A stretch of 64,000 bases of DNA from an uncultured Candidatus Saccharibacteria bacterium (GTDB taxonomy: Bacteria > Patescibacteriota > Saccharimonadia > Saccharimonadales > JAGQNJ01), in NCBI GenBank assembly GCA_964584895.1, contig CAZPAW010000003.1, positions 35,009-99,008 on the forward strand. The letters run 5' to 3'. Within the stretch, counting starts at the first letter, position 1, and each line of letters begins with the position of its first letter. The translations under genes and the position numbers were made by a program. The notes under the pieces were generated by a model. The model had not been told where the DNA came from, searched no databases, and saw only the letters and a list, made by a program, of their open reading frames with translations. Positions 14,676 through 63,871 of this stretch are shown here, piece after piece.

Positions 14676-16055
14676 TTATGGTGCGAGTTTTAACTTGCCA
14701 AACAGTTCATTTATCTTAACTCGTTCTTGTTTAGTGGTATCTCTATCGCGAACAGTAACCGAATCATCGTCTAAAGTATCAAAATCTACTGTCACACAGT
14801 ATGGCGTACCGATTTCGTCCTGCCTTCTATACCGCTTACCAATATTGCCGTTATCATCAAATTCGCATGTCATCGTTTGGCTTAGGCTGTCAAATATTTC
14901 TTTAGCCTTTTTAACCAGCTCTGGTTTGTTCTTTAACAGCGGGAAAACAGCAACTTTAACAGGCGCAAGACTTGGCGATAACTTGAGGACCGTTCTGGTT
15001 TCGCCCTCTACTTCTTCCAGTACGTAAGCATCGCACAGCACAGCCAAAAACATCCGACCCAATCCAACTGATGTTTCTAGAATCCATGGAATGTACTTTT
15101 CATTAGTTACAGGATCTTGATAGTTCAAATCTTTGCCTGAAAACTTCATGTGCTGAGATAAATCGTAATCAGAACGATCATGTATACCCTCTAGTTCGTC
15201 AAAACCAAGCGACGGATAATTGTATTCTATATCCCAAGCCTCTTTGCAGTAAAAAACTAAGTATTCATGCTTTTTCCAGCGCAAATTTTCTGGATTGATT
15301 CCAATATCCAGATACCATTGCCAACGATCTTTTTTAATTTGTTCGTATGCGTCTTTATTCTGCTTTGGTTTTACGAAATACTGTGTGTCGGCCTGCTCCA
15401 TCTCGCGGGTTCGGAATAAAAAGTTGCGTGGGCTTATTTCGTTTCTAAAAGCTTTACCGATTTGTCCAATACCAAATGGTATTTTTACACGCGTGGTATC
15501 GACTACATTTTTGAAGTTAAGATAGATGCCTTGACATGCCTCACCCGGTAAATACACAGGTCTATCATCCTGACCAGTAAAATCACCAAGGTTTGATTTG
15601 ACTAGCAAATTAAATGGTCTAGCGTCTGTAAAATCTTTATTACCACATTTTGGGCACTTTATTTTATCGCGATTATCATTGAATAACTTGTTCAGCTCGG
15701 CTTCTGTCATTTTCTCATCCGCCTCAACACCAATTGCGCCGAGTTCTTTATCTACTCGAATCCGAGTATGACAAATCTTACATTCCGCCAGTGGATCTGC
15801 AAACCCACCAACATGGCCCGATGCTTCCCAGACTTTTGGATGCTTAAACATTGCTGAATCGAGTCCAACATAATTAGCTCTACTTGAAACATTCGCCTTC
15901 CACCAAGCTGCTTTTAGGTTATTTAATAACTCTACGCCGTAAGGGCCATAGTCATATAACCCAGCTTCTCCTCCATAAATTTCACTCCCCGGATATACAA
16001 ACCCACGTCGTTTACACAAGCTTACTATGTCTTCTAGGCTAACTTTTTTACTCAT
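14676..16055 (-). CDS. glyQS: Glycine--tRNA ligase (dimeric GlyQS type)
   Basis: N-terminal LCKRRGFVYPGSEIYGG, FRNEISPRNFLFRTREMEQ (motif 2) and a C-terminal anticodon-binding domain. Confidence 0.9.
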   Translation of the reverse strand: MSKKVSLEDIVSLCKRRGFVYPGSEIYGGEAGLYDYGPYGVELLNNLKAAWWKANVSSRANYVGLDSAMFKHPKVWEASGHVGGFADPLAECKICHTRIRVDKELGAIGVEADEKMTEAELNKLFNDNRDKIKCPKCGNKDFTDARPFNLLVKSNLGDFTGQDDRPVYLPGEACQGIYLNFKNVVDTTRVKIPFGIGQIGKAFRNEISPRNFLFRTREMEQADTQYFVKPKQNKDAYEQIKKDRWQWYLDIGINPENLRWKKHEYLVFYCKEAWDIEYNYPSLGFDELEGIHDRSDYDLSQHMKFSGKDLNYQDPVTNEKYIPWILETSVGLGRMFLAVLCDAYVLEEVEGETRTVLKLSPSLAPVKVAVFPLLKNKPELVKKAKEIFDSLSQTMTCEFDDNGNIGKRYRRQDEIGTPYCVTVDFDTLDDDSVTVRDRDTTKQERVKINELFGKLKLAP

Positions 16056-16166: not shown

Positions 16167-16859
16167 TTACTGATAGTTCTGTAGAATTTGTTGTAACAAA
16201 ACTAGACATAAATCAACTTCTAAATCAACTCCACCTACTACACTAATTTTTTCAATATTTTCACTTGCAAGTAATCGAAGTAATTTGATATGTCTACTAT
16301 TATACTGGCCACCAGAACTTCGTGAAAAACACATATCATCAAAATCAAAAATATAACTACTTTCTTCTGCTAAACTATAGCCTTCTTGATCAGTTATCAA
16401 GTTTGGCTCGTGGCCCATAATTTTAATAAGATTCATATAGAACCAGGCTTCGGTCAATTTGAGACTATAGATTGTGTTGTCTAGAGCTGAAAGTGAACGT
16501 AATAATAGATTGTAATAATCAATCTCGCTACTATCTCTCGTAACTGAGTCTATTGTAGTTAATATGACATAGGCAGTATTTGTCCTATTTAAATCTTTTA
16601 CGATTTCACCAAAATGCGTAACCAGTCTACTAGAAGTTAGCGTCCCGATTTCTTTTTTTGGCGGTATAAAACTAATATTACTAATGCTGAATAATTCTAT
16701 GCCTCCTGCCAGTTTACTTTTTTCCTTTCTGACGCCTTTCGCAATTAAGCTTAATTTGCCATAATCCGGAGTGATTACCGTCAAGATTCTATCGGCTTCA
16801 CCAAAATTAATTCTTTTTAAAACAATACCAGTAGTAGATAAACTATTTGGTGCGGGCAT
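16167..16859 (-). CDS. recO: DNA repair protein RecO
   Basis: N-terminal OB-fold block GIVLKRINFGEADRILTVITPDYGKLSLIAKGVRK. 230 aa. Confidence 0.8.
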   Translation of the reverse strand: MPAPNSLSTTGIVLKRINFGEADRILTVITPDYGKLSLIAKGVRKEKSKLAGGIELFSISNISFIPPKKEIGTLTSSRLVTHFGEIVKDLNRTNTAYVILTTIDSVTRDSSEIDYYNLLLRSLSALDNTIYSLKLTEAWFYMNLIKIMGHEPNLITDQEGYSLAEESSYIFDFDDMCFSRSSGGQYNSRHIKLLRLLASENIEKISVVGGVDLEVDLCLVLLQQILQNYQ

Positions 16860-17238
16860 TTTTTAACCCCACAAGATCATTAACTAGAGACAATAGCTTA
16901 TCTAAAGTGACTCGAGGTTTATACAAAATTTCTACTATGCCAAGCTTATCTGCCATTAATGAGCTAATACCGAGAACATCGCCAGGTATAACAGAATTAA
17001 TTACAATTGGGATATCACGCCAATCGGGATGCGAGCGTAGTTCATATAAAAACTCTATCCCGTTATGTTCACCTAATTGTATTTCTAGAATAATTAGTTT
17101 TGGAATTTGTCTATCGAGAGCATGAATCGAAGCTTGAGGATTAGTTTGTAAATCAACTTTATAGTTTGCTCTTTGTAGAAATTTTTTATAAGTACTACCG
17201 AGCAGTGCATCAGGCTCAACCAACAGTACGTCTATCAT
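16843..17238 (-). CDS. Atypical stand-alone receiver (REC) domain protein with the phospho-acceptor Asp replaced by Glu
   Basis: REC fold pattern IDVLLVEPD ... KLIILEIQLGEHNG ... IVINSV ... YKP. The acidic pocket DD is replaced by EP and the phospho-Asp position is Glu. Start chosen at ATG 17238 (the track TTG is at 17274). Confidence 0.65.
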   Translation of the reverse strand: MIDVLLVEPDALLGSTYKKFLQRANYKVDLQTNPQASIHALDRQIPKLIILEIQLGEHNGIEFLYELRSHPDWRDIPIVINSVIPGDVLGISSLMADKLGIVEILYKPRVTLDKLLSLVNDLVGLKNARTK

Positions 17239-17274
17239 ATATATATAATAATCTGTAGTATATATTATTGCCAA

Positions 17275-17982
17275 CTACAACAGAGATAATTGGGCGCTAG
17301 GAATCAATCGTGCTATCAGACCACGCGATTTATTATGTCTTGAGTAATCCAATTTACTTTGCATTGCGAAAAACAGCGAATCGGCGATATATAATCCCGC
17401 TCCACTATTATGTGTTAATCTTGAGGCTGGCTGCCGAGCATTACCGTACAATTTTCGGGCATCATCTAATGTTTTTTTACTTATGTTGGTACTATTGCTA
17501 AACACGCCAGCGCTTATAATATTATTTTCACTACGAGCATATAATGTAATAATTTTTCTTATCTTATAGTCATTTGCAGAAATAAAAGTATAGGCCAAAC
17601 TTGTCAAAGCTGCTTCTAAGGCATCTTTATTTGCCATAACAAGCCCACACTTGCCCTCTACCTTAATATCAATCACAGTGTTATAAAGACTAGTGAATCT
17701 GCGTAAATTTTCTGCACAATCATACATAGTAGATGTTAGTGCTATTGGTGATAGTTCAAAAGGTAATCTATTTATAGCAGACTGCGAGCTCAATGTATAA
17801 CTATCAAGTAATTTGATGGCGGCATCGGCGGTGTATTCTATCCTCTTATACTGATCCTTGTCGTTCATTAATCGCCCAAATTCTGCACTCCTAGCAACCT
17901 GCAAAAACGGAATTTTTAACTCTTCTGCAAGAGCATATAGCAAACGTGTATTCAAATCCTTGGAGTCAAGACTTTCCATCAC
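17275..17982 (-). CDS. Degenerate soluble histidine-kinase-like protein (DHp plus HATPase-like, His replaced by Glu)
   Basis: The H-box-like ALAEELKIPF compares with the canonical SHELRTPL. The N-box Asn and the G1 DxGxG are absent (LTSLAYTFISA, VFSNSTNI). The G2-like SGAGLYIAD is retained. There is no TM or sensor domain. Confidence 0.5.
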   Translation of the reverse strand: MMESLDSKDLNTRLLYALAEELKIPFLQVARSAEFGRLMNDKDQYKRIEYTADAAIKLLDSYTLSSQSAINRLPFELSPIALTSTMYDCAENLRRFTSLYNTVIDIKVEGKCGLVMANKDALEAALTSLAYTFISANDYKIRKIITLYARSENNIISAGVFSNSTNISKKTLDDARKLYGNARQPASRLTHNSGAGLYIADSLFFAMQSKLDYSRHNKSRGLIARLIPSAQLSLL

Positions 17983-18801: not shown

Positions 18802-19290
18802 TCACTTATAGGTGTATAAAAACACTCCATTTGAAATCTTTAGCGGCTTTTTCCCTGTTATTTCAAATGCATAACTTGCCAATTTGATTGGGTTTTGAAC
18901 TTCATTTAATACTTTATTGTTTAATTTATCCATGTATTTATCTAGCAAAAAACAGTATATGCCATCTGTTTTTGGTAATTTGATATTCCAAAAATTACCC
19001 CAAATAACTGTAACCTTATCTTTGTATTTATAGTTATTAATCTTGGCAACCAAAACAAGTAACGGATTAAGCTCATAGCCGATTACTATAAGTCCCTTTT
19101 TAGCGGCATACTTTAACACGCGTCCGTCACCACATCCTAATTCAATTAAGGTTTGTCCTTTTTTTAAATTCAAGAGATCAATGGCTGAAATAATTTGCTG
19201 TTTTTTTGTAGGTAAATATGGTGCGCCAAACAAAATAACATATCCAAAACAAAAAACAATAACCGACAATATCAAAATAAATATATTCAT
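18802..19290 (-). CDS. Class I SAM-dependent methyltransferase with an N-terminal TM helix
   Basis: Motif I LIELGCGDGRVL. 4-nt overlap with xseB. Confidence 0.65.
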   Translation of the reverse strand: MNIFILILSVIVFCFGYVILFGAPYLPTKKQQIISAIDLLNLKKGQTLIELGCGDGRVLKYAAKKGLIVIGYELNPLLVLVAKINNYKYKDKVTVIWGNFWNIKLPKTDGIYCFLLDKYMDKLNNKVLNEVQNPIKLASYAFEITGKKPLKISNGVFLYTYK

Positions 19291-19481
19291 TTTGTTTTAA
19301 ATGTTTTGATTATGTTCTCTGCGTTTTTTAGATAATCACTCAACTCCTCAAGCAAGATTGTACCTTTTTTGTGAAGTTCTAATGCACGATCAACATCGTT
19401 GTTTAGAGTTTGCATGTCTGCTAAAACTTCATCTAGCTCTTTTCTAATTTCTAGATATTTTCGTCTTTTATTTTTAGTCAT
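19287..19481 (-). CDS. xseB: Exodeoxyribonuclease VII small subunit
   Basis: 64-aa helical protein directly downstream of xseA, with the block LDEVLADMQ...VDRALELHKKGTILLEEL. Confidence 0.75.
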   Translation of the reverse strand: MTKNKRRKYLEIRKELDEVLADMQTLNNDVDRALELHKKGTILLEELSDYLKNAENIIKTFKTK

Positions 19482-19485
19482 GTAT

Positions 19486-20610
19486 TTATTTTACCTTGAT
19501 ATCATTAATTTCAGCCATTACTATTCCGTCAGCCAACTTAATATTAATAGAATCGCCCAGATTTAGTTTTGAGACAGATCTAATACTCAATCCATCTTTT
19601 GAAATTATTGCATAACCCCTATCAAGTATTTTTACTGGATCAAGACTGCGAAGTAATTGTTCTTTAATTAGAATCTGGGCTTGCTCGTTATGGAATAGAT
19701 TTGAGCACAATGTACTAAGACTAATTGTTGTATCTTCAATCTCATGTTTTATATCAAAAAATACATTATCTAATATGGTATTTATAGATTCTTGAATATT
19801 TTTAATAGAAAAAAGCTCTGTTCTTTTATCTGGAACTAAAACCTCGGCCGCATTACTAGGAGTGCTTGCCCGCCTGTCTGCGGCAAGTTCGGCAAAAGTA
19901 TAGTCCCTTTCGTGCCCAACCGCTACTAAAGTAGGTATTTTGCTTCCTGCGATCGCACGAACCAATTGTTCGTCGTTAAACGCTTGTAAATCATCATTAC
20001 TGCCACCGCCTCTAGTAATTACGATTACTTCTAAATCAGGAATCTGACTATTAGCTTTATTAATTGCATCAGCAATTTTTAAGGCTGAATGTTCGCCTTG
20101 AACTGATGTTTCAAAATGGATAACTTCCACTCCACACCATCGATGATTCAATACTTTGATGAAATCGCCATATGCTGCAGATTCCGAGGAAGTAATTAAC
20201 CCAATGCGATTTGGAGACGGAGGTAGAGCTCTCTTTCTCGATTTATCAAAGATACCCTCTCTTTCGAGTTTGTTTTGCAATAAGCTATTCGCACGCTTAA
20301 TCGTACCCGCACCAAATAGTTGAATTGATTGAATTTGCAAACTAAACCCAAACTTTGGGTGTAACTGAGGAACAGCCATTACTTTTAGCATCATGCCGTC
20401 TTCAATAGGCGCAGGTAGCTTTAATATGGATCCAAAAAATTTGACGCTAGAATTTTCATCTCTAAGATTAAAAAATAACCAAGTATTTTTGCTAATAGAA
20501 AAGTTACTAACTTCGCCAACAATCACAACCTGCGGGTATGCATAATTTATAGTCTGATTGAATACTGAGACAAAATCGCTAACACTAAATTCTATAATTG
20601 AGTCTTGCAT
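19486..20610 (-). CDS. xseA: Exodeoxyribonuclease VII large subunit
   Basis: N-terminal OB-fold (VIVGEVSNFSISKNTWLFFNLRD) and catalytic core ITRGGGSNDDLQAFNDE ... VGHERD. Confidence 0.85.
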   Translation of the reverse strand: MQDSIIEFSVSDFVSVFNQTINYAYPQVVIVGEVSNFSISKNTWLFFNLRDENSSVKFFGSILKLPAPIEDGMMLKVMAVPQLHPKFGFSLQIQSIQLFGAGTIKRANSLLQNKLEREGIFDKSRKRALPPSPNRIGLITSSESAAYGDFIKVLNHRWCGVEVIHFETSVQGEHSALKIADAINKANSQIPDLEVIVITRGGGSNDDLQAFNDEQLVRAIAGSKIPTLVAVGHERDYTFAELAADRRASTPSNAAEVLVPDKRTELFSIKNIQESINTILDNVFFDIKHEIEDTTISLSTLCSNLFHNEQAQILIKEQLLRSLDPVKILDRGYAIISKDGLSIRSVSKLNLGDSINIKLADGIVMAEINDIKVK

Positions 20611-23353: not shown

Positions 23354-23731
23354 CTAGACTCCTAAATGATGCTTGACGCGCTCGACAACATCGGCAATAA
23401 CAACTTGCGACTTAACCATATAGTCATCCACACCAAGCTTCTCGGCCTTTTCTTTATCACTATCCTGACTTAATGCAGTTAACATAACAATCTTAATATT
23501 TGAGGTCTCTGGGGTATTACGAAGAATATCCAGCACATCAAACCCACTCACTTTTGGCATCATAACATCGAGCAATATAAGATCAGGTCGATATTCAACC
23601 GCAGAAGCTAGTGCGTCTTCACCATTTGGTACACGACGTACGCTAAAGCCTTCAGTCTCAAGTCGCATTCGATAAACATTTGCTAATCCATCATCATCTT
23701 CGACTAATAATATCTTTTTTTGGCTGCTCAT
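23354..23731 (-). CDS. Stand-alone CheY-like response regulator receiver (canonical residues)
   Basis: ILLVEDDD, DLILLDVMMP, VMLTA and DDYMVKS. All phospho-relay residues are present and there is no output domain. Confidence 0.85.
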   Translation of the reverse strand: MSSQKKILLVEDDDGLANVYRMRLETEGFSVRRVPNGEDALASAVEYRPDLILLDVMMPKVSGFDVLDILRNTPETSNIKIVMLTALSQDSDKEKAEKLGVDDYMVKSQVVIADVVERVKHHLGV

Positions 23732-23843: not shown

Positions 23844-25463
23844 TTATGATTTTTTAGCAAGTAGACTCTCTACAAAACCCTTAAACAATGGCTGAGGTTT
23901 ATTTGGTCTAGAATTAAACTCTGGGTGAAACTGGGAAGCAACAAAAAACGGATGATCTATCCCTTCGATAACTTCAACTAAGTTTTTATCAGGCGACAAA
24001 CCTACAGCCTTAATACCCCATTTTTCGTAACTGTCCCTATAATCATTGTTACATTCGTAGCGATGTCTGTGTCTACCGACAATTTTTCTACTTTTGTAAT
24101 ACTTTGCAGAGATTGAATCTTTGTCAAGGTCGCACGGATAATTTCCAAGCCTCATTGTGCCACCTGTATTTTCTAATCCTTTTTGAGAATTCATCGTAGA
24201 TACTACTTGGTCAGGACTACTGTCGTCGAGTTCGGTGCTTGTTGCGCTTTGTATACCATAATTCCTTGCTGCCGCGATAACTGCCATCTGTAAACCTAGA
24301 CATAATCCCAAATAAGGAACCTTATTTTTAAGAGCATATTGGGCAGCTTTTATTTTTCCTTCAAGTGCTCGTTCTCCAAATCCACCTGGTACGATTATCC
24401 CATCGACTTTCGAGAAAGCCTTCTCGAGTTGGCTAGGCGACATTTTTTCACATTTCTCTGCGTCAATCCAAGAATAATCGATACTGACCCCACTATGCCA
24501 GCTAGCGCTTTTTAGTGCTTCAATGACACATATGTATGTGTCCTCATTATCAAGATACTTTGCAACCAATCCTACTTTTATCTTATTTTTTGGTTTGGTC
24601 GTAATCATGTCAACCATTTCGCGCCATTGTTTCATATTAGATCGTTTGTGTTTTAAGCCAAGCTTGGCAACTATATAATCGCCTATTCCCTGATCTTCTA
24701 AAGTTAGTGGAACTTGATATACGCTTTTTGCATTAGGCAGTATTGCGATTCCACTTTCCGGGACTCCACAAAATGTACTCAACTTTTGTTTAACCCTTGG
24801 ATTCTTTGGATCTTCTTCGCACCGAGCTACTAGCAAATCAGGCATTATACCCATACTTCTCAACTCTCTGGTAGCGTTCTGAGCGGGTTTTGTTTTAATC
24901 TCTTTACTCGCGCCTAAAAATGGAAGATATACAACCTGAACATTTATACAATTGTCTGAACCCGTGCGCGTTCGATACTCTCTAATCGCTTCAAAAAATG
25001 CTGGGCTTTCATAATCTCCCACCGTTCCACCTATTTCAACTATATGGACATCAAAGCCAGCACTAGCCTGATCTATGTAAGTCTGAATTGCGTCCGTAAA
25101 ATGCGGAACAACCTGTACTGTTTTTCCCAGATACTTACCATCGCGCTCATCCTGGATCAATCTACGTAATACTCTTCCGCTCATAACTGAGCTCGATGAA
25201 GTAAGCTCTACATCTAAGAATCTTTCATAATGACCAAGGTCAAGATCGGTCTCTGCTCCATCTTTAGTTACGAAACATTCTCCATGTTCTGCAGGATTTA
25301 ATGTTCCGGCATCTACATTCAAATATGGGTCTAATTTTTGTATATTTACTGAGAGGCCTCTGCTCTTAAGGATTGTCCCTATAGATGCGCCAGTTATACC
25401 CTTGCCGAGCCCTGATAGCACTCCGCCTGTTACAAATATATATTTAGTAGGTCGTTTTGCCAC
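23844..25463 (-). CDS. pyrG: CTP synthase
   Basis: N-terminal KYIFVTGGVLSGLGKG, GATase domain GLCLGLQ, 539 aa. Confidence 0.95.
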   Translation of the reverse strand: MAKRPTKYIFVTGGVLSGLGKGITGASIGTILKSRGLSVNIQKLDPYLNVDAGTLNPAEHGECFVTKDGAETDLDLGHYERFLDVELTSSSSVMSGRVLRRLIQDERDGKYLGKTVQVVPHFTDAIQTYIDQASAGFDVHIVEIGGTVGDYESPAFFEAIREYRTRTGSDNCINVQVVYLPFLGASKEIKTKPAQNATRELRSMGIMPDLLVARCEEDPKNPRVKQKLSTFCGVPESGIAILPNAKSVYQVPLTLEDQGIGDYIVAKLGLKHKRSNMKQWREMVDMITTKPKNKIKVGLVAKYLDNEDTYICVIEALKSASWHSGVSIDYSWIDAEKCEKMSPSQLEKAFSKVDGIIVPGGFGERALEGKIKAAQYALKNKVPYLGLCLGLQMAVIAAARNYGIQSATSTELDDSSPDQVVSTMNSQKGLENTGGTMRLGNYPCDLDKDSISAKYYKSRKIVGRHRHRYECNNDYRDSYEKWGIKAVGLSPDKNLVEVIEGIDHPFFVASQFHPEFNSRPNKPQPLFKGFVESLLAKKS

Positions 25464-57632: not shown

Positions 57633-60554
57633 TTAGGCTTTTTGCAAGTTTATTGTAAGCTCGGCTCCTTCTAAAGTTGTAACTTCTGTGTATTTTAAAG
57701 TCTTTAATTCGCTAAGTAATGTAGTCGCAAGTGTCTCGGTCGCAATAGTCGTCTTGTACTCTTTTATAGCCTGTAAGACTTCCTTGTCGTTTGAAACAAG
57801 AGAAAGTTCGATTCTATCATCAACATTCAATCCAGCCTTTTTACGAGCATTTTGTACGTGTCGCACAATCTCACGCATTATGCCTTCACGTTTTAACGCA
57901 GGGGTTATCTTAGTATCTAGATTAATGATTAACTCATCTCCATCGGTCGTCCAACTAACTTCATGTATATTCAACTCATCCAATACAATGCCAACTAATT
58001 GATGTCTTTCTTTTTGGGACCAAGGCGCTCCACTTACGACAAGTTTTTCTAACGGTTGTCTAACTTTTATTTTTGCATGAGCCCTCTGAGCAAGTCCCTC
58101 ATTTATCAACGTTCGGACAAAATTCATCTCATCAATAAGACTAGTATCTGCCTTTTTTGCCTTTGGCCAATCGCTAAGATGAACTGATACGGGCAATGAG
58201 GTGCCAGTTGTCAACTCGCGCCACAAATAGTCGCTCAGAAACGGCGCCCATGGTGCTAATAGCTGGCAAAGACGAACTAACACAAACCATAGTGTCTCAT
58301 AGGCCTGATTCTTATCACTATCGTCTTCGCTCTTCCAGAAACGACGACGAGAACGACGAATAAACCAATTACTCATATCGTCTATTAGCACAAAGATAGG
58401 CTGAATAGCATGGGCAATTTTGTAGTCATCAGCACGACGAGTTGATTCCGTAATCGTTTCATTTAGGCGCGCAAAGATCCACTGGTCGAGCACATTGGCA
58501 CTTTGAGGTTGTTCACCAGGGTGGGCAGGATGCCAATCATCAATATCAGCATACATCTTAAAGAAGCGATAGGAATTCATAAGGGTACCTAGCACATTAC
58601 GGTTGAGGTCTTTTAGGGCGGTTCGATCAAAACGCATGTAATCAGCTACCTGGGTGGCTTGAGTACTAGAGAGCAAGAACAAACGCAGTGAATCAGCTCC
58701 TTCATCCTCAAACACATCTTCTACAGGGGGATAATTCTTGAGGCGCTTGGATAGCTTTTGACCATCAGCGGCCATAATCATACCGTTCACTACCACATTT
58801 TTATAGGCCGGTCGATCAAATAAGATCGTATTAACAACATGCTGCACATAAAACCAAAGACGCGTTTGATCCAACCCCTCGATAATAAAGTCGGCTGGGA
58901 AACTCTTTTCAAACGTCTCCTTGTTTTCGAATGGATAATGCTGCTGGCCAATGCTCATACACCCAGATTCGAACCAACAATCGATGACCTCTTCCACGCG
59001 GCGATAGGTTTTACCATCCTTCTTAATGACGACGTCATCAACTTTAGGACGGTGAACGTCTGATAGATCAAGGTCAGCCTGGCCGGCTAGTTGACGTAAT
59101 TGATCATAGCTCTCAATAACAATATAGTCGTCTTCGTCCTGCTCGTTCACCCAGACAGGCATAGGAGCACCCCAATAACGATTGCGTGATACTGCCCAGT
59201 CACGCGCCCCTTCCAGCCACTTTCCAAAACGCCCAGCTTTAATATGATCGGGTACCCAGTTGATTTCTTCTGCCGTCTTGATCAGTTGATCGCGAATGGA
59301 AGAAACCTTAATAAACCAGCTAGAGATAGCGTAGTACATCAGTGGTGTTTCGCAACGCCAACAGAAAGGATAGGTGTGAGTAAAGGTTAAGGCCGCATAA
59401 ACTCGATTTTTCTGGGTCAGATGTTCAATGATAAGCTTATCCGCCCCTTTGAAGAACTTACCCTCTACCTCATCAAAGCCGATACCGCCGATAACCTTAC
59501 CGCTGGCATCGATTGTTTTGAGCACAGGAATATTGTTCGCTTGACCAAGATTGAGGTCGTCCTCACCAAAAGCTGGCGCGACGTGCAAGATGCCACTTCC
59601 GTCATCAATACTGACAAAATCGGCTGCCCATAACTTGTAGAGATTCTCTTTACCTTCAGCGGTCTTGGCTTGCTCGACATCAAATAAGGGCTCGTAAGTT
59701 AAGCCCACTAAATCACGCCCATGAACCTCTTTTTCAACCTGATAATCGTCGCTAGCTAAAGCTTCGAGGCGTTTTTGGGCTAGAACCAGTACTTCTTCCA
59801 CCCCGTCGTCATCTTTTAAGCGTACATAAACGTACTTCTCTTCTGGATTAACAGCAATAGCAGCATTACCCGGCAATGACCAAGGTGTTGTAGTCCAACC
59901 CAATAAAAAGGCCTCTTGATCGACCAGTTTAAACTTTATGAATAAACTTGGATCTGGCACGTTGTCCTTGTAGCCATCATTTACCTCAAAGTTAGATAAC
60001 GGCGTTTCGCAACGCGGACAATAGGCAGTACTCTTGAAACCTCTATAGAGTAGACCCTTGTCATTGATCTGTGACATTGCCCACCAAACACTCTCGGTAT
60101 AACTATTATCGACTGTAGCATAATAGTGATCGTATTCACTCCAACGACCAAGGCGCTGTAATAAGACCTCCCACTCGCCTTTGTATTTAAAAATAGAGTC
60201 GCTGCAGGCATTGTTAAACTTCTCAAGACCTAACTCTAGAATCTGCTTTTTACCGCTGACACCAAACTCCTTTTCGATTGCAAACTCTACCGGGAGACCA
60301 TGGCAGTCCCAACCATTACGTCGTGGAACGTAAAAACCCTGCATGGTTTTATACCGCAACATTGAATCCTTAATACTAGTGACCAAACTATGTCCAAAGT
60401 GAGGTAAACCGTTGGCAAAAGGTGGACCATCGTAGAAACTGAAGTACGGTTTGCCTTGTCGCTGCTTGATACTTTGCTGAAATGTACCTTCTTTCTGCCA
60501 GGTCGCCAGCATATTCTCTTCGATAATCGCCAGATTTGATTTCTTTTCCGCCAT
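57633..60554 (-). CDS. ileS: Isoleucine--tRNA ligase, type 2 (eukaryote-like) signature
   Basis: HIGH region PPFANGLPHFGH and KMSKS region KLSKRLKNYPP. 973 aa, and I saw no C-terminal Zn-ribbon of the type 1 enzyme. Confidence 0.95.
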   Translation of the reverse strand: MAEKKSNLAIIEENMLATWQKEGTFQQSIKQRQGKPYFSFYDGPPFANGLPHFGHSLVTSIKDSMLRYKTMQGFYVPRRNGWDCHGLPVEFAIEKEFGVSGKKQILELGLEKFNNACSDSIFKYKGEWEVLLQRLGRWSEYDHYYATVDNSYTESVWWAMSQINDKGLLYRGFKSTAYCPRCETPLSNFEVNDGYKDNVPDPSLFIKFKLVDQEAFLLGWTTTPWSLPGNAAIAVNPEEKYVYVRLKDDDGVEEVLVLAQKRLEALASDDYQVEKEVHGRDLVGLTYEPLFDVEQAKTAEGKENLYKLWAADFVSIDDGSGILHVAPAFGEDDLNLGQANNIPVLKTIDASGKVIGGIGFDEVEGKFFKGADKLIIEHLTQKNRVYAALTFTHTYPFCWRCETPLMYYAISSWFIKVSSIRDQLIKTAEEINWVPDHIKAGRFGKWLEGARDWAVSRNRYWGAPMPVWVNEQDEDDYIVIESYDQLRQLAGQADLDLSDVHRPKVDDVVIKKDGKTYRRVEEVIDCWFESGCMSIGQQHYPFENKETFEKSFPADFIIEGLDQTRLWFYVQHVVNTILFDRPAYKNVVVNGMIMAADGQKLSKRLKNYPPVEDVFEDEGADSLRLFLLSSTQATQVADYMRFDRTALKDLNRNVLGTLMNSYRFFKMYADIDDWHPAHPGEQPQSANVLDQWIFARLNETITESTRRADDYKIAHAIQPIFVLIDDMSNWFIRRSRRRFWKSEDDSDKNQAYETLWFVLVRLCQLLAPWAPFLSDYLWRELTTGTSLPVSVHLSDWPKAKKADTSLIDEMNFVRTLINEGLAQRAHAKIKVRQPLEKLVVSGAPWSQKERHQLVGIVLDELNIHEVSWTTDGDELIINLDTKITPALKREGIMREIVRHVQNARKKAGLNVDDRIELSLVSNDKEVLQAIKEYKTTIATETLATTLLSELKTLKYTEVTTLEGAELTINLQKA

Positions 60555-60566
60555 AGAACTCCTTTA

Positions 60567-60775
60567 TAAAAACTAAAAACCTCAAAAGGTTTTTCTGGAT
60601 CCCTTGCACGGGAGGTACCATCCAGATTCCTTTGAGGTTATTTCTCAAAAGCACTTAGTTAATTGCTGTAACGGGCTTACCCGGCGAATTCTAGTCTTGC
60701 ATCAAAGCAATTTCTTTTCGCATCCGTTCAGTTATTGAACTGATTGTAGTTGATAGCTACTAATAACGGATATCT
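60567..60775 (-). promoter_or_regulatory. T-box-like tRNA(Ile)-sensing leader with an intrinsic terminator upstream of ileS
   Basis: On the minus strand, the hairpin GUAG-CUAUCAA-CUAC (60760-60746) displays AUC followed by A. The bulged helix UCUGGA-[UGGUACC]-UCCC-GUGCAA-GGGA-UCCAGA (60626-60594) has the canonical antiterminator architecture. It is enclosed by ACCUCAAAGG / CCUUUUGAGGU and followed by UUUUUAGUUUUU, then the AAGGAG SD and the AUG. Confidence 0.7.
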
Positions 60776-60800
60776 ACAGACAAATATACTCTATAAACCC

Positions 60801-61070
60801 CTATCGTTCAACAAGATAAGCAGATACTTCATCAATCAGTGGCATTGTCTCTGTAGCCACCCAACTACTGACTAATTGCCCACCATTATCCAGGGCAACA
60901 ACTGTTGGATAACTGACTATGTCATATAATTCAACTAGTTTAATGCCCTCTATTGAATCAACATCCAACAACTCTATAGCTCTTGACGTTCTACGTAAAA
61001 AATCTCGAGCATACTGTTCAACCATAGTCCCGTGTTCGGACTGGGGTCTATAAAGCACAACTACTTTCAT
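60801..61070 (-). CDS. Small thioredoxin/glutaredoxin-fold-like protein lacking any cysteine
   Basis: 89 aa with a beta-alpha-beta start (MKVVVLYRP), where SEHG sits at the usual CxxC position, and a cis-Pro-like motif (SYPTVVAL). It has no Cys residues. It lies immediately downstream of nrdJ. Confidence 0.5.
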   Translation of the reverse strand: MKVVVLYRPQSEHGTMVEQYARDFLRRTSRAIELLDVDSIEGIKLVELYDIVSYPTVVALDNGGQLVSSWVATETMPLIDEVSAYLVER

Positions 61071-61102
61071 AAACCCAGAATATCATCTCTAAAGACTATT
61101 AT

Positions 61103-63871
61103 CTAGCTACAGCCAGTGGTTGAGCCACACGAGGTGCAGACATAACAACTGCCTGAGCGTTGAGTTTGATTACCGCAGTTAAAACAAAGTGGTGCCGTAT
61201 CATCAGATGATGATTTTTCTACAACGACTTGTTCTGTTTCTTGTATGGTTATCTCTGTATTTTGTTCCATTACTGGCTCTTCAATTGTTGAACCAGTATC
61301 AACTTCTAAGGAGGTTTGAGCCTCTGGCATATCGTCAATCGAAGCCAATCCGAGCTCTAAACGATCATCGAACGACAGATACTCATTAGCCAATTTCTTA
61401 GCAATGTAGTCTATTAGTGAAGTAGCCGTTCGAATTTCTGGATCGTCAGTTATTCCCGACGGCGCAAAGGACATACTTGTAAATGATTTTACATAATCCT
61501 TTAGAGGTACGCCAAACTGCAGTCCATGACTAACACTTATCGCAAAGGCATCCATAATACCTCGTAGGGTTGAGCCTTGCTTACTGACATTAACAAATAT
61601 TTCGCCGGCGGTACCGTCTTCGTATTCTCCAACCGTCATATAGCCATGGCTATCTGCGACTCTAAACGAAAAGGTTTTGGCTGTCCTTGTTCTAGGCAAA
61701 CTTTTTCGGTGAGCCCCACCTTTAAGAACAAATTTATCTTCAATCGAAGCTGTAATTGTCGTAGTCACATCTGGTGCTTTTTCTTTACCGGCTTTTTTGG
61801 CCATCGCAAGTGGTTGTCCTACTTTACAGTTATCTCTATAGACTGCTACAGCCTTGAGACCGAGTTTCCATGATTCGATATGTAATTGTTCAATAGCTTC
61901 AACGTCTGCTTCCTCTGGCATGTTAACCGTCTTACTGATCGCCCCTGACAAGAATGGCTGGACTGCACCCATCATCTTTACGTGCCCCATATAGTGAATA
62001 GCATTGTCACCCATAGAACAAGCAAACACATTTACATGCTCGGCTTTTAGATGTGGCGCACCAATAATTGTCTTCTCTACGTCTACATACCCTACGATGT
62101 CATCGATTTGTTGCTTAGAGTAGCCCATAGCGTTAAGCGCACGAGGTACTGTCTGATTAACAATATGCATTGTTCCACCACCGACCAACTTCTTAACCTT
62201 AACAAGTCCAAGATCTGGCTCAATACCGGTCGTGTCGCAGTCCATCATCAGTCCAATTGTGCCCGTAGGAGCCAATACGCTAGCCTGTGAGTTGCGTACA
62301 CCATGAATTTCAGATAATTGGACTGCTTCGTCCCAAGAATGCGCTGCGGCGCTTAAAAGCTCTTCAGACACCAAGCTTGCATCAATCTTTGATACTTCCT
62401 GCCTATGCATTCCAATAACTTTGAGCATTCCTTCCCTATCTTTTCTAAACCCAGAGAAAGTACCAACCCGCTCAGCAATCTTTGCACTTGTCGCGTATGC
62501 ATGCCCTGTCATTAAAGCAGTGATCGCGGCAGCTTGCGCTCGACCTTCATCAGAATCATAGGGCAAACCTTGAGCCATTAGTAATGCACCGAGATTTGCG
62601 TATCCTAGCCCTAACTCTCGGTAAGCCCGAGCATTTTTTCCTATGCTTTCAGTTGGATACTCTGAATACCCGACGAGAATTTCTTGTGCCGTAAAGATTA
62701 ACTCGACAGTATGTTTAAAAGCTTCAACATCGAAAGTATTATCGTCCCGCAAATACTTCAACAAATTTATTGACGCAAGGTTACAAGCTGAATTATCTAA
62801 ATGCATGTATTCGCTACATGGGTTAGATGCATTTATTCGGCCGGCGTTCGGGCAAGTGTGCCACTTGTTTATCGTCGTATCAAACTGCATGCCAGGATCA
62901 GCACACTCCCAAGCTGCCTCATTAAGTTGTCTAAAAAGTGCTCTAGCTTTTACTGTCTTAACAGTCTTGCCAGTCTTAACTTCTTTGAGATCCCAGTCTG
63001 CGTCATTTTCTACAGCATGCATAAAATCATCCGTAACCCGCACCGAATTATTGGCATTTTGGTACTGTACAGAGAACGAGTCTTTACCATCTAGACTCAT
63101 ATCAAATCCATTCTCTTCTAAAACTCGCGCTTTACGCTCTTCAATAGCTTTACACCAAATAAACTCTTCAATATCCGGATGATCAATGTTAAGTATCACC
63201 ATCTTTGCAGCTCGGCGCGTTTTTCCGCCACTTTTTATTGCTCCGGCCGAAGCATCAGCCCCTCTCATAAAACTTAACGGGCCACTTGCCGTGCCGGCAC
63301 TTTTTCCTAGTTTTTCTACCGACGATCTGATACCGCTAAGGTTAATTCCTGAGCCTGAACCACCCTTAAAAATCATCCCTTCTTCTTTATACCAATTCAA
63401 TATTGCAGGCATCGTGTCTTCAATACCTAAAATAAAACAAGCGCTAGCCTGCTGCGAGCGACTTGGAGCGCCAATATTAAACCATACTGGAGAATTAAAT
63501 GCCGCCCGTTGAGTAGCGAGGATGTACTTTAGCTCTTCAGAGAATATAGTAGCCTCTTGTTCTGATTCAAAATAATCTTCACTTAAGCCGTGCCTAGTGA
63601 TTGTATCGACTACTCTATCAATTAAATCTCTAAGTGAACTCTCACGCTCATCTGTTCCGGGCGTTCCAGTAAAGTACTTTTGAGCCACAATATTTACAGA
63701 GTTAAGAGACCAACTTTCTGGAAAATCTACACCTTTTTGTTCAAAAACTGGCTCATTAGTAAAAGGATTTGCGATTAATGAATCCCTTTTTACCCACTTC
63801 AACTGATCATACGCGCTTTTTTTAGGTTGCGTAAATAACCTTTCAACCCTTAAGCTGGTTGCTTGACTCAT
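61103..63871 (-). CDS. nrdJ: Class II (adenosylcobalamin-dependent) ribonucleotide reductase NrdJ with a Cys-rich C-terminal tail
   Basis: 922 aa. Active-site block SNPCSEYMHLDNSACNLASINL, the N-terminal VERLFT... region typical of long NrdJ, and a C-terminal CFNCGNQTQRSGSCYVCTSCGSTTGCS. Confidence 0.9.
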   Translation of the reverse strand: MSQATSLRVERLFTQPKKSAYDQLKWVKRDSLIANPFTNEPVFEQKGVDFPESWSLNSVNIVAQKYFTGTPGTDERESSLRDLIDRVVDTITRHGLSEDYFESEQEATIFSEELKYILATQRAAFNSPVWFNIGAPSRSQQASACFILGIEDTMPAILNWYKEEGMIFKGGSGSGINLSGIRSSVEKLGKSAGTASGPLSFMRGADASAGAIKSGGKTRRAAKMVILNIDHPDIEEFIWCKAIEERKARVLEENGFDMSLDGKDSFSVQYQNANNSVRVTDDFMHAVENDADWDLKEVKTGKTVKTVKARALFRQLNEAAWECADPGMQFDTTINKWHTCPNAGRINASNPCSEYMHLDNSACNLASINLLKYLRDDNTFDVEAFKHTVELIFTAQEILVGYSEYPTESIGKNARAYRELGLGYANLGALLMAQGLPYDSDEGRAQAAAITALMTGHAYATSAKIAERVGTFSGFRKDREGMLKVIGMHRQEVSKIDASLVSEELLSAAAHSWDEAVQLSEIHGVRNSQASVLAPTGTIGLMMDCDTTGIEPDLGLVKVKKLVGGGTMHIVNQTVPRALNAMGYSKQQIDDIVGYVDVEKTIIGAPHLKAEHVNVFACSMGDNAIHYMGHVKMMGAVQPFLSGAISKTVNMPEEADVEAIEQLHIESWKLGLKAVAVYRDNCKVGQPLAMAKKAGKEKAPDVTTTITASIEDKFVLKGGAHRKSLPRTRTAKTFSFRVADSHGYMTVGEYEDGTAGEIFVNVSKQGSTLRGIMDAFAISVSHGLQFGVPLKDYVKSFTSMSFAPSGITDDPEIRTATSLIDYIAKKLANEYLSFDDRLELGLASIDDMPEAQTSLEVDTGSTIEEPVMEQNTEITIQETEQVVVEKSSSDDTAPLCFNCGNQTQRSGSCYVCTSCGSTTGCS

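Follow-up and report, generated by a model that had tools for sequence, protein, structure and literature searches.

A histidine kinase/receiver pair degenerate at both phosphorylation sites and kept under purifying selection in Saccharibacteria

What remains of a two-component system once both of its partners have lost the residues that carry the phosphoryl group, and is such a pair a relic or a working module? The question is raised by two adjacent minus-strand genes upstream of recO in a 64,000-nucleotide (nt) stretch of an uncultured Candidatus Saccharibacteria bacterium (Patescibacteria/CPR; assembly GCA_964584895.1, contig CAZPAW010000003.1, positions 35,009 to 99,008), referred to here as the window. 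An earlier note on this DNA had described the two genes as a degenerate histidine kinase and receiver with glutamate at both phospho-accepting positions. We find that they form a co-degenerated, selected pseudo-kinase/pseudo-receiver module. Its parts are listed below, receiver residues being counted from the ATG at 17238.

17275-17982, minus strand: pseudo-histidine-kinase gene, 235 amino acids (aa) (open reading frame, hhalign, AlphaFold2 and Foldseek)
17770-17970, minus strand: DHp-like helical hairpin, kinase residues 5-71, with degenerate H-box ALAEELKIPFLQ (AlphaFold2 helices 5-39 and 43-71; H-box alignment)
17923-17925, minus strand: Glu20 codon GAA at the position of the phospho-accepting His (sequence; alignment to the homologue P0018)
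17299-17751, minus strand: CA-like (Bergerat-fold) domain, residues 78-228 (AlphaFold2, Foldseek, motif comparison)
17380-17406, minus strand: kept G2-like box SGAGLYIAD, residues 193-201, canonical GLGLY (motif comparison)
17278-17301, minus strand: C-terminal tail PSAQLSLL, residues 228-235 (family alignment)
16843-17238, minus strand: single-domain pseudo-receiver gene, 131 aa, ATG at 17238, stop at 16845-16843 (Pfam, AlphaFold2, orthologue starts)
17209-17217, minus strand: codons of Glu8-Pro9-Asp10 (VEPD), Pro standing for the second acidic-pocket Asp, a Mg2+ ligand (sequence)
17083-17085, minus strand: Glu52 codon GAA at the phospho-accepting Asp position, end of beta3, KLIILEIQL (alignments)
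17029-17067, minus strand: beta3-alpha3 loop and helix alpha3, residues 58-70, HNGIEFLYELRSY (invariant over 84 homologues)
16993-16995, minus strand: Ser82 codon, conserved Thr/Ser position kept, INS (alignment)
16918-16920, minus strand: Lys107 codon, conserved Lys kept in Y-K-P (alignment)
16167-16859, minus strand: recO (Pfam RecO_N and RecO_C, TIGR00613; synteny)

Is the upstream gene a histidine kinase relative at all? Searches with standard profiles would not tell, as the 235-aa protein has no HisKA or HATPase_c match at E<=10 in Pfam or NCBIfam, and a profile built from the degenerate family only has no match among PDB sequences (hmmsearch); sequence-only methods therefore fail unless a canonical family is used as a bridge. 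The profile searches suggested earlier as a check thus recognised Response_reg in the receiver and neither kinase domain in its neighbour. Matches of the 235-aa protein to L7Ae, S9 and YafN (Pfam/NCBIfam) were sub-threshold and spurious, and one to AP-1 gamma (phmmer against the PDB, E 0.0085) was put down to chance. The bridge is P0018, a homologue retrieved by protein search with a canonical H-box (AAHELKSPL), N-box (NFSDNALHH), G1 box (RDYGPA) and G2 box (GLGLY), whose subfamily scores 41-54 bits against the HATPase_c model of Pfam. When the degenerate and canonical families were compared with hhalign, they matched over 219 columns (98.8% probability, E 6e-17), and Glu20 was placed on the H-box His of AAHELKSPL (His28 of P0018). 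A hidden Markov model (HMM) of the canonical subfamily matches the kinase-like open reading frame (ORF) at E 3e-18 and nothing else over the 64 kb, and the window encodes no second histidine kinase besides the degenerate one. The AlphaFold2 (AF2) model of the protein (pLDDT 78, pTM 0.76) has a pair of long helices ahead of an alpha/beta domain, and Foldseek relates it to HK853, DivL, CusS, EnvZ-type cores, ChpT and RetS (E down to 3.5e-10, TM-score about 0.68). The homology of the kinase-like protein to canonical histidine kinases is solid, and the layout that had been read from its sequence, a DHp plus HATPase-like arrangement lacking a transmembrane segment or sensor domain, is supported by AF2, Foldseek and hhalign together: the DHp helix begins after only some 12 residues, and neither a transmembrane segment nor a sensor domain is present.

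Measured against the canonical relatives, the three losses reported in the earlier note are all real. Glutamate stands where the H-box His belongs, the N-box Asn is gone (SLAYTFISA against NFSDNALHH) and so is the DxGxG of G1 (FSNSTN against RDYGPA), while the G2-like SGAGLYIAD is left; within it neither G194 nor G196 varies among close family members, and 152 of 164 family representatives have G196. The region of the ATP lid (residues 181-190) is modelled at low confidence (pLDDT 43). Because His, N-box Asn and G1 are lost, kinase chemistry appears implausible, and ATP binding too has presumably been lost. Other parts of the protein are strongly conserved. In the first DHp helix, residues L18, E21, P25, Q28, A30 and E34 around the former His are invariant, and the most conserved residue of the whole family lies outside the classical kinase boxes: Gln231 is present in 164 of 164 representatives, canonical ones included, and together with Ser229 (152/164) belongs to a C-terminal tail, PSxQLxL[LV], common to canonical (P0018) and degenerate kinases.

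The downstream gene is more easily recognised, and here the point to be settled was where it begins. Its longest ORF (16843-17274, 143 aa) opens with a TTG at 17274, and the 12 extra residues so gained are absent in orthologues. Since the orthologous receivers begin M-x-x-[IV]LL[IV]EPD throughout, the true start is almost certainly the ATG at 17238, giving 131 aa. A 36-nt spacer therefore separates the receiver from the stop of the kinase-like gene (TAG, 17277-17275; that gene has a GTG start with an ATG one codon in), and the abutment of the two genes that had been described turns out to be a longest-ORF artefact. The 17-nt overlap of the receiver stop with recO is in the sequence as described.

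The receiver scores 42 bits against Response_reg of Pfam (PF00072; gathering score 30.2), and FrzS is its top PDB sequence match (E 1e-6). Its AF2 model, built from 84 sequences, shows a clean (beta-alpha)5 layout (pLDDT 90), and the closest structures according to Foldseek are RR468, FrzS, Spo0F and DivK (TM-score about 0.8; 3gl9_B, 3dge_C, TM-score 0.80). The motif sites were placed by alignment to PDB receivers (FrzS, RR468) and to canonical orthologues. Both substitutions claimed for this protein, Glu for the acceptor Asp in KLIILEIQL and VEPD for the acidic pair, hold in these alignments, as do the retained fold and the conserved Lys of YKP. The acceptor Glu is close to invariant: it is present in 71 of 73 syntenic receivers, where Asp is the sole alternative and no Asn, Gln or Ala was seen, and without exception in the protein-search alignment, whose 86 sequences are the window protein and 85 homologues. 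In the same alignment E-P-D is found in 86/86 sequences, as it is in nearly all syntenic loci, Tyr106 in 86/86 and Lys107 in 85/86, and the position of Ser82 is occupied by Ser in 51 and Thr in 33 (S/T 84/86). One exception is a locus on JAGQNJ010000040.1 (L008, receiver at about 1426-1798), which has Asp at the acceptor position (VLIVLDVQL) and keeps E-P-D; there the Lys is replaced by Glu (LYEPH), and the kinase-like partner still has Glu at its His site.

Conservation on the receiver surface is uneven. Over 84 homologues H58, G60, E62, F63, Y65, E66 and S69 in the beta3-alpha3 segment are invariant, in contrast to alpha1 and the alpha4-beta5-alpha5 face, which vary. Canonical orthologues conserve LHELQSY.D at the same region. 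The protein carries neither an output domain nor a coiled-coil domain, and the beta3-alpha3 segment is a candidate output surface, reminiscent of FrzS with its use of alpha3-beta4-alpha4.

Could phosphoryl transfer nevertheless take place in some other way? With both the second acidic-pocket Asp and the acceptor Asp lost, phosphotransfer to the receiver seems implausible. A non-canonical chemistry would have to rely on another His or Asp (His191 of the kinase-like protein, Asp10 of the receiver), on another mode of nucleotide binding or on another kinase of the genome. Several features are compatible with it: G2 is kept, His191 is invariant in the close family, the receiver retains its Ser/Thr, Lys and Asp10, and the genome has at least one canonical receiver, while a PAS histidine kinase is present elsewhere in the genome of the related Southlakia epibionticum (PMC10633639). 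We nevertheless regard this as highly improbable. Of 233 degenerate members, 229 lack the N-box Asn and the G1 Asp/Gly that the Bergerat fold needs for Mg-ATP; across the wider family the position of His191 varies (H 35, S 34, A 33 and others); and Pro at the metal-ligand position removes the Mg2+ site required for receiver phosphorylation.

If the chemistry is gone, the simplest suspicion is that the genes are decaying remnants, functionless pseudogenes in the making. All catalytic signatures are lost, the kinase-like protein goes unrecognised by Pfam and NCBIfam, and NCBI labels family members, the window protein included, as hypothetical proteins. A scan for the locus, taking one genome per species, gives a different picture. 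It returned 74 loci, nearly all titled as Saccharibacteria or Saccharimonadales metagenome-assembled genomes, and in each of these 74 species-level genomes the ORFs are intact, sharing 29-72% identity with the window protein. About 250 representative clusters (50% identity) match at E < 1e-30, some canonical members among them. The ratio of non-synonymous to synonymous substitution rates (dN/dS) has a median of 0.12 over 237 pairs of the kinase-like gene and of 0.14 over 22 pairs of the receiver gene. The codons at the decisive positions turn over synonymously: across loci the kinase-site Glu is written GAA 56 and GAG 20 times, the receiver acceptor Glu GAA 48 and GAG 23 times, and all four Pro codons are in use for Pro9. 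Many residues are invariant, and both models fold with good confidence. Given the dN/dS values and the synonymous turnover at the Glu codons, both genes are functional and under purifying selection, in agreement with the earlier note, which had argued against random decay; the pseudogene explanation, scarcely credible on any count, is refuted by the selection and conservation data. The upstream protein, which keeps its fold at a dN/dS of 0.12 and has lost His, N-box Asn and G1, is a pseudo-histidine kinase in the sense of Collins & Childers, whose definition, as cited in PMC12632262, is a protein with the fold kept and one or more kinase functions missing. The downstream protein, with its PF00072 match, missing phosphotransfer residues and dN/dS of 0.14, is likewise a pseudo-receiver.

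Where did such a pair come from? In three further loci (L003, L082 and L083) a canonical pair is found at this position, flanked by the membrane-protein gene and recO, the order there being PsbP-like membrane protein, histidine kinase, receiver, recO and glyS. Their kinases have His, N-box, G1 and G2, and their receivers have EDD, Asp, Thr/Ser and Lys. The derivation of the window pair from a real two-component system is thus borne out by canonical orthologues at the same syntenic position. Canonical members are numerous: upwards of 3,000 proteins match at E < 1e-20 and are named as histidine kinases from Saccharimonadales, Chromulinivoraceae or the Patescibacteria group. In a neighbour-joining tree of 357 sequences, computed from capped distances, midpoint-rooted and without bootstrap support, 233 degenerate and 124 canonical sequences are separated without exception, and the nearest neighbour of each sequence lies in its own class. 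The D.G of G1 is present in 124/124 canonical and in 4/233 degenerate sequences. On these sequence comparisons, a single transition from canonical to degenerate would be the most parsimonious history.

The surroundings of the pair bear on what it does. All relevant genes lie on the minus strand in the order, 5' to 3', xseA, xseB, S-adenosylmethionine (SAM)-methyltransferase-like gene, gene for a 221-aa membrane protein, kinase-like gene, receiver, recO and glyS:

19486-20610, minus strand: xseA (Pfam/NCBIfam)
19287-19481, minus strand: xseB (Pfam/NCBIfam)
18802-19290, minus strand: small class I SAM-methyltransferase-like gene, 162 aa, with an N-terminal hydrophobic helix
18078-18743, minus strand: single-pass membrane protein, 221 aa, PsbP-like by its positional orthologue SEML1_0245
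14676-16055, minus strand: glycyl-tRNA synthetase (glyS)
23354-23731, minus strand: separate canonical single-domain receiver (Pfam, 84 bits; synteny with L27)

The order kinase-like gene, receiver, recO is found in every locus of the 74-locus scan with enough sequence. The membrane-protein gene lies directly upstream of the histidine kinase or kinase-like gene in 77 of 83 loci, in canonical and degenerate clades alike, and 70 of the 83 keep the SAM-methyltransferase-like gene with xseB on one side and the PsbP-like gene on the other.

The arrangement extends to S. epibionticum ML1. Between 14676 and 26778 the window contains thirteen genes in the order of SEML1_0237-0249, namely S41 peptidase, canonical receiver, L27, methyltransferase, flippase-like protein, xseA, xseB, SAM methyltransferase, a 220-aa protein, histidine kinase, receiver, recO and glyS. 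As a side observation, pyrG (23844-25463) stands between the S41 peptidase gene and the canonical receiver in the window, which is not so in S. epibionticum. The orthologue of the kinase-like gene there, SEML1_0246, encodes 235 aa with matches to PF02518 and PF00512, and SEML1_0247 matches PF00072 at 6e-22 (PMC10633639 Table S2); from these Pfam matches and the annotation given in that paper, the S. epibionticum pair would be canonical. SEML1_0245 is Mog1p/PsbP-like in fold, and the protein is Patescibacteria-enriched (PMC10633639). For this organism transposon sequencing (Tn-seq) has been reported at three time points (PMC10633639 Table S1), with the following calls (ES, essential; GD, growth defect; NE, non-essential) and insertion counts:

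SEML1_0245, PsbP-like protein: ES/ES/ES, insertions 1, 0, 0 (PMC10633639)
SEML1_0246, histidine kinase: GD/GD/ES, insertions 8, 3, 1 (PMC10633639)
SEML1_0247, receiver: NE/GD/ES, insertions 2, 1, 0 (PMC10633639)
SEML1_0248, RecO: NE/NE/GD, insertions 25, 36, 29 (PMC10633639)

Simple polarity on glyS is an unlikely cause of the depletion of insertions, because recO, which lies downstream of the pair, tolerates 25-36 of them. SEML1_0244, the orthologue of the SAM-methyltransferase-like gene, is non-essential, as is SEML1_0238, the positional orthologue of the separate receiver (PMC10633639). The PsbP-like membrane protein is probably the third member of a conserved module. The 221-aa protein of the window has no Pfam match and exposes about 10 cytoplasmic residues ahead of its transmembrane helix.

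How, then, might a pair of this kind work? The reading that we prefer, and consider rather probable, is that of a co-degenerated pair in which no phosphotransfer takes place, the receiver being locked, probably in an on-like state, and the pseudo-kinase serving as its docking scaffold or regulator. A canonical minimal kinase/receiver pair would have lost phosphorylation chemistry in both partners in one large clade, so that ATP-driven phosphotransfer would be absent and the receiver would be held in one conformation, with Glu52 possibly reaching Ser82 and Lys107 in a metal-free pocket. The pseudo-kinase dimer may then act as docking scaffold or regulator of the receiver through the conserved DHp helix that once bore the His, much like the DivL-DivK pair, and output would pass by protein-protein contact, plausibly through the invariant alpha3 surface of the receiver, to some target. 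That the interaction between the two proteins has probably been retained is suggested by conservation within the DHp hairpin, which peaks in helix 1 around the position of the lost His. An on-like state is suggested by the PhoB double mutant D10A/D53E (PDB 2jb9), titled constitutively active, which carries substitutions at the two equivalent positions and retains Thr and Lys. This structure is among the neighbours of the window receiver model; it is an engineered form of a DNA-binding regulator, whereas the window receiver has Pro rather than Ala and no effector domain, and by analogy with it the substitution pattern may be activating here too. According to PMC12632262, moreover, no replacement of the Asp is commoner among pseudo-receivers than Glu, which in many regulators is partly phosphomimetic.

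Several observations weigh against this reading. The exchange of Asp for Glu is not activating in every regulator and has been disproved as such for some pseudo-receivers (PMC12632262). Covariation between kinase-like protein and receiver, computed as inter-protein mutual information with average product correction over 63 paired loci, a shallow depth, is no stronger than in the kinase-RecO, receiver-RecO and PsbP controls; the top kinase-receiver z-scores reach 5.4, and the top pairs lie off the expected DHp/alpha1 interface. Helix alpha1 of the receiver, the usual helix for kinase docking, is weakly conserved. The canonical status of SEML1_0246 and SEML1_0247 is deduced from Pfam matches and annotation. 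Finally, Glu at the kinase site is preferred only (E > Q > H, D > others). The locus search gives Glu in 76 of 77 cases, a figure that is biased since one of its two patterns presupposed E or Q at this site; the unbiased count comes from the representative library, in which the 164 family representatives have E 133, Q 10, H 9, D 6, R 2 and L, A and Y once each at the His position. Three checked kinase-like proteins of the Q, D and R types still have Glu-type receivers. Three others (P0043, P0068 and P0149, from loci L079-L081) have His at the H-box, have lost N-box and G1 and belong to the degenerate clade; their receivers, too, are of the Glu type, and their His must therefore be a reversion or a residue retained without its kinase context. 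A kinase site that accepts these other residues besides Glu probably does not mimic phospho-His specifically. The claim that Glu at both sites is phosphomimetic thus has to be divided: the survey of orthologues proposed in the earlier note finds the receiver Glu nearly invariant and the kinase-site Glu favoured without being strict.

The variability of the kinase site also fits a different explanation, in which the module has been retained as a constitutive structural or assembly complex with the PsbP-like protein, for instance in the envelope, division or budding, and contains no locked-on switch, Glu52 being simply the residue best tolerated for folding the receiver pocket without metal. The adjacency of the PsbP-like gene in most loci and the essentiality call of its orthologue in S. 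epibionticum point the same way, and pseudo-receivers have few or no residues in common, with activation by Asp-to-Glu exchange having failed in some cases (PMC12632262). We think this unlikely, as the receiver Glu is almost invariant and the Ser/Thr and Lys are kept, which is what one would expect of a pocket that mimics the phosphorylated state, and as some 10 cytoplasmic residues leave the PsbP-like protein little with which to contact cytoplasmic partners.

The weak covariation, in turn, raises the question whether the two proteins are coupled at all. They might have been recruited separately, the receiver for example as a FrzS-like adaptor, with their adjacency inherited from the operon in a small syntenic genome. 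Adjacency alone is weak evidence where, as between the window and S. epibionticum, at least 13 genes have kept their order; the best-conserved receiver surface is alpha3 and not alpha1; and FrzS, the top sequence match in the PDB, is a pseudo-receiver that uses alpha3-beta4-alpha4. The losses of the phospho-sites are, however, tightly coupled. All 124 canonical kinases group in a single clade, and in the three cases inspected the neighbour is a canonical receiver, whereas the roughly 80 receivers inspected from the degenerate clade all have Glu at the acceptor position bar the L008 one. The conserved stretch of DHp helix 1 is also the canonical docking site for receivers. Independent recruitment is accordingly, in our estimation, quite unlikely.

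Beyond the locked, scaffolded pair that we prefer, a wider proposal may be put forward tentatively, and we hold it to be doubtful: that the PsbP-like protein, kinase and receiver make up a core controller of the epibiotic life cycle, which in one clade was rewired once into a phosphorylation-free protein-protein switch. Regulation of such a switch would be by binding, abundance or localisation.

Elsewhere in the window, the receiver at 23354-23731, next to the L27 gene, had been called a fully canonical CheY-like receiver, and so it is: EDDD, Asp, Thr and Lys are all present and it scores 84 bits in Pfam. A scan for promoters and terminators between 14.5 and 21 kb yielded no more sites than shuffled sequence would lead one to expect, or fewer; a promoter-like site matching at 10 of 12 positions in the 36-nt gap between kinase-like gene and receiver carries no weight. 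Over the 64 kb, ARAGORN found no tRNA or tmRNA, and no Rfam family reached its gathering score. Nearly all large genes of the window are on the minus strand, and the GC skew is negative throughout. The G+C content rises to 0.42-0.45, from about 0.37, at 57633-63871, where ordinary housekeeping genes are encoded:

57633-60554: isoleucyl-tRNA synthetase
61103-63871: class II (B12-dependent) ribonucleotide reductase with TSCPD domain

Why should the pair matter? If the wider proposal of a phosphorylation-free switch is true, it would be a natural, clade-wide two-component system free of phosphorylation, with canonical sister orthologues fit for swaps. The degenerate pair and the canonical orthologues of sister lineages make a matched natural before-and-after system, in which one could ask what a two-component pair does without phosphotransfer and whether a Glu at the Asp site locks a receiver on. 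One of these sister lineages, S. epibionticum, is cultured and genetically tractable, and its Tn-seq data speak for a role of the canonical pair in growth. These reduced genomes have few signalling modules, and this one is marked as a candidate for a part in a little-understood life cycle. Literature searches on Saccharibacteria two-component systems did not turn up a description of the pair. The activation mechanisms of pseudo-receivers and pseudo-histidine kinases were termed 'a mystery' in a 2025 review, according to which the His is missing in 0.9% of HisKA domains and the Asp in 2% of receivers, and 18 of 20 characterised atypical regulators of bacteria are orphans (PMC12632262).

Among known systems, HK853-RR468 of Thermotoga maritima provides the best structural match for both window proteins (3dge_A, TM-score 0.68, for the kinase-like one). 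As a canonical HisKA kinase with a single-domain receiver it has the same minimal architecture as the canonical Saccharibacteria orthologues. Unlike the window pair, it has a transmembrane and sensor region and an active kinase, with His, N-box, G1 and receiver Asp all present. ChpT (4fmt) and RetS (6dk7, 7n0e) are further structural matches of the kinase-like model, and with Spo0B they exemplify proteins that combine a DHp with a degenerate CA domain and have lost ATP binding, as is predicted for the window protein. ChpT and Spo0B have retained their His and act as phosphate shuttles, and the target of RetS is another kinase; in the window protein the His itself is gone.

A close parallel is DivL-DivK of Caulobacter crescentus. 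DivL is, like the kinase-like protein, a DHp plus CA protein in which the phospho-His is replaced and the catalytic domain repurposed, it has a stand-alone receiver as partner, and the two work by protein-protein contact, such as we propose for the window pair. Structures of DivL (4q20) and DivK (1mav, 1m5u) are among the best matches of the two window models. The differences are that DivL has Tyr and not Glu, is membrane-tethered and carries PAS sensor domains, and that DivK is genuinely phosphorylatable, its phosphorylation state being read by DivL. In the window pair there would be no such state to read, since the receiver is dead as well.

On the receiver side, FrzS, CmrT, NblR, HP1043 and ChxR are pseudo-receivers that, like the window protein, keep the PF00072 fold without its catalytic residues (PMC12632262); compared with them, the window receiver is encoded beside its own cognate kinase and has degenerated together with it. 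Plant PRRs/TOC1 and fungal Rim15p are natural, selected receivers with Asp replaced by Glu and without phosphorylation at Asp (PMC12632262). They differ from the window receiver in being eukaryotic multi-domain proteins, with CCT or kinase domains, and in having no co-degenerated histidine kinase partner. Pseudo-histidine kinases such as DivL and RetS, and pseudo-receivers such as FrzS, CmrT and the plant PRRs, are thus each already known; what is unusual here is that a cognate pair has degenerated together and that both members are kept across a large clade, with canonical orthologues persisting in the same slot.

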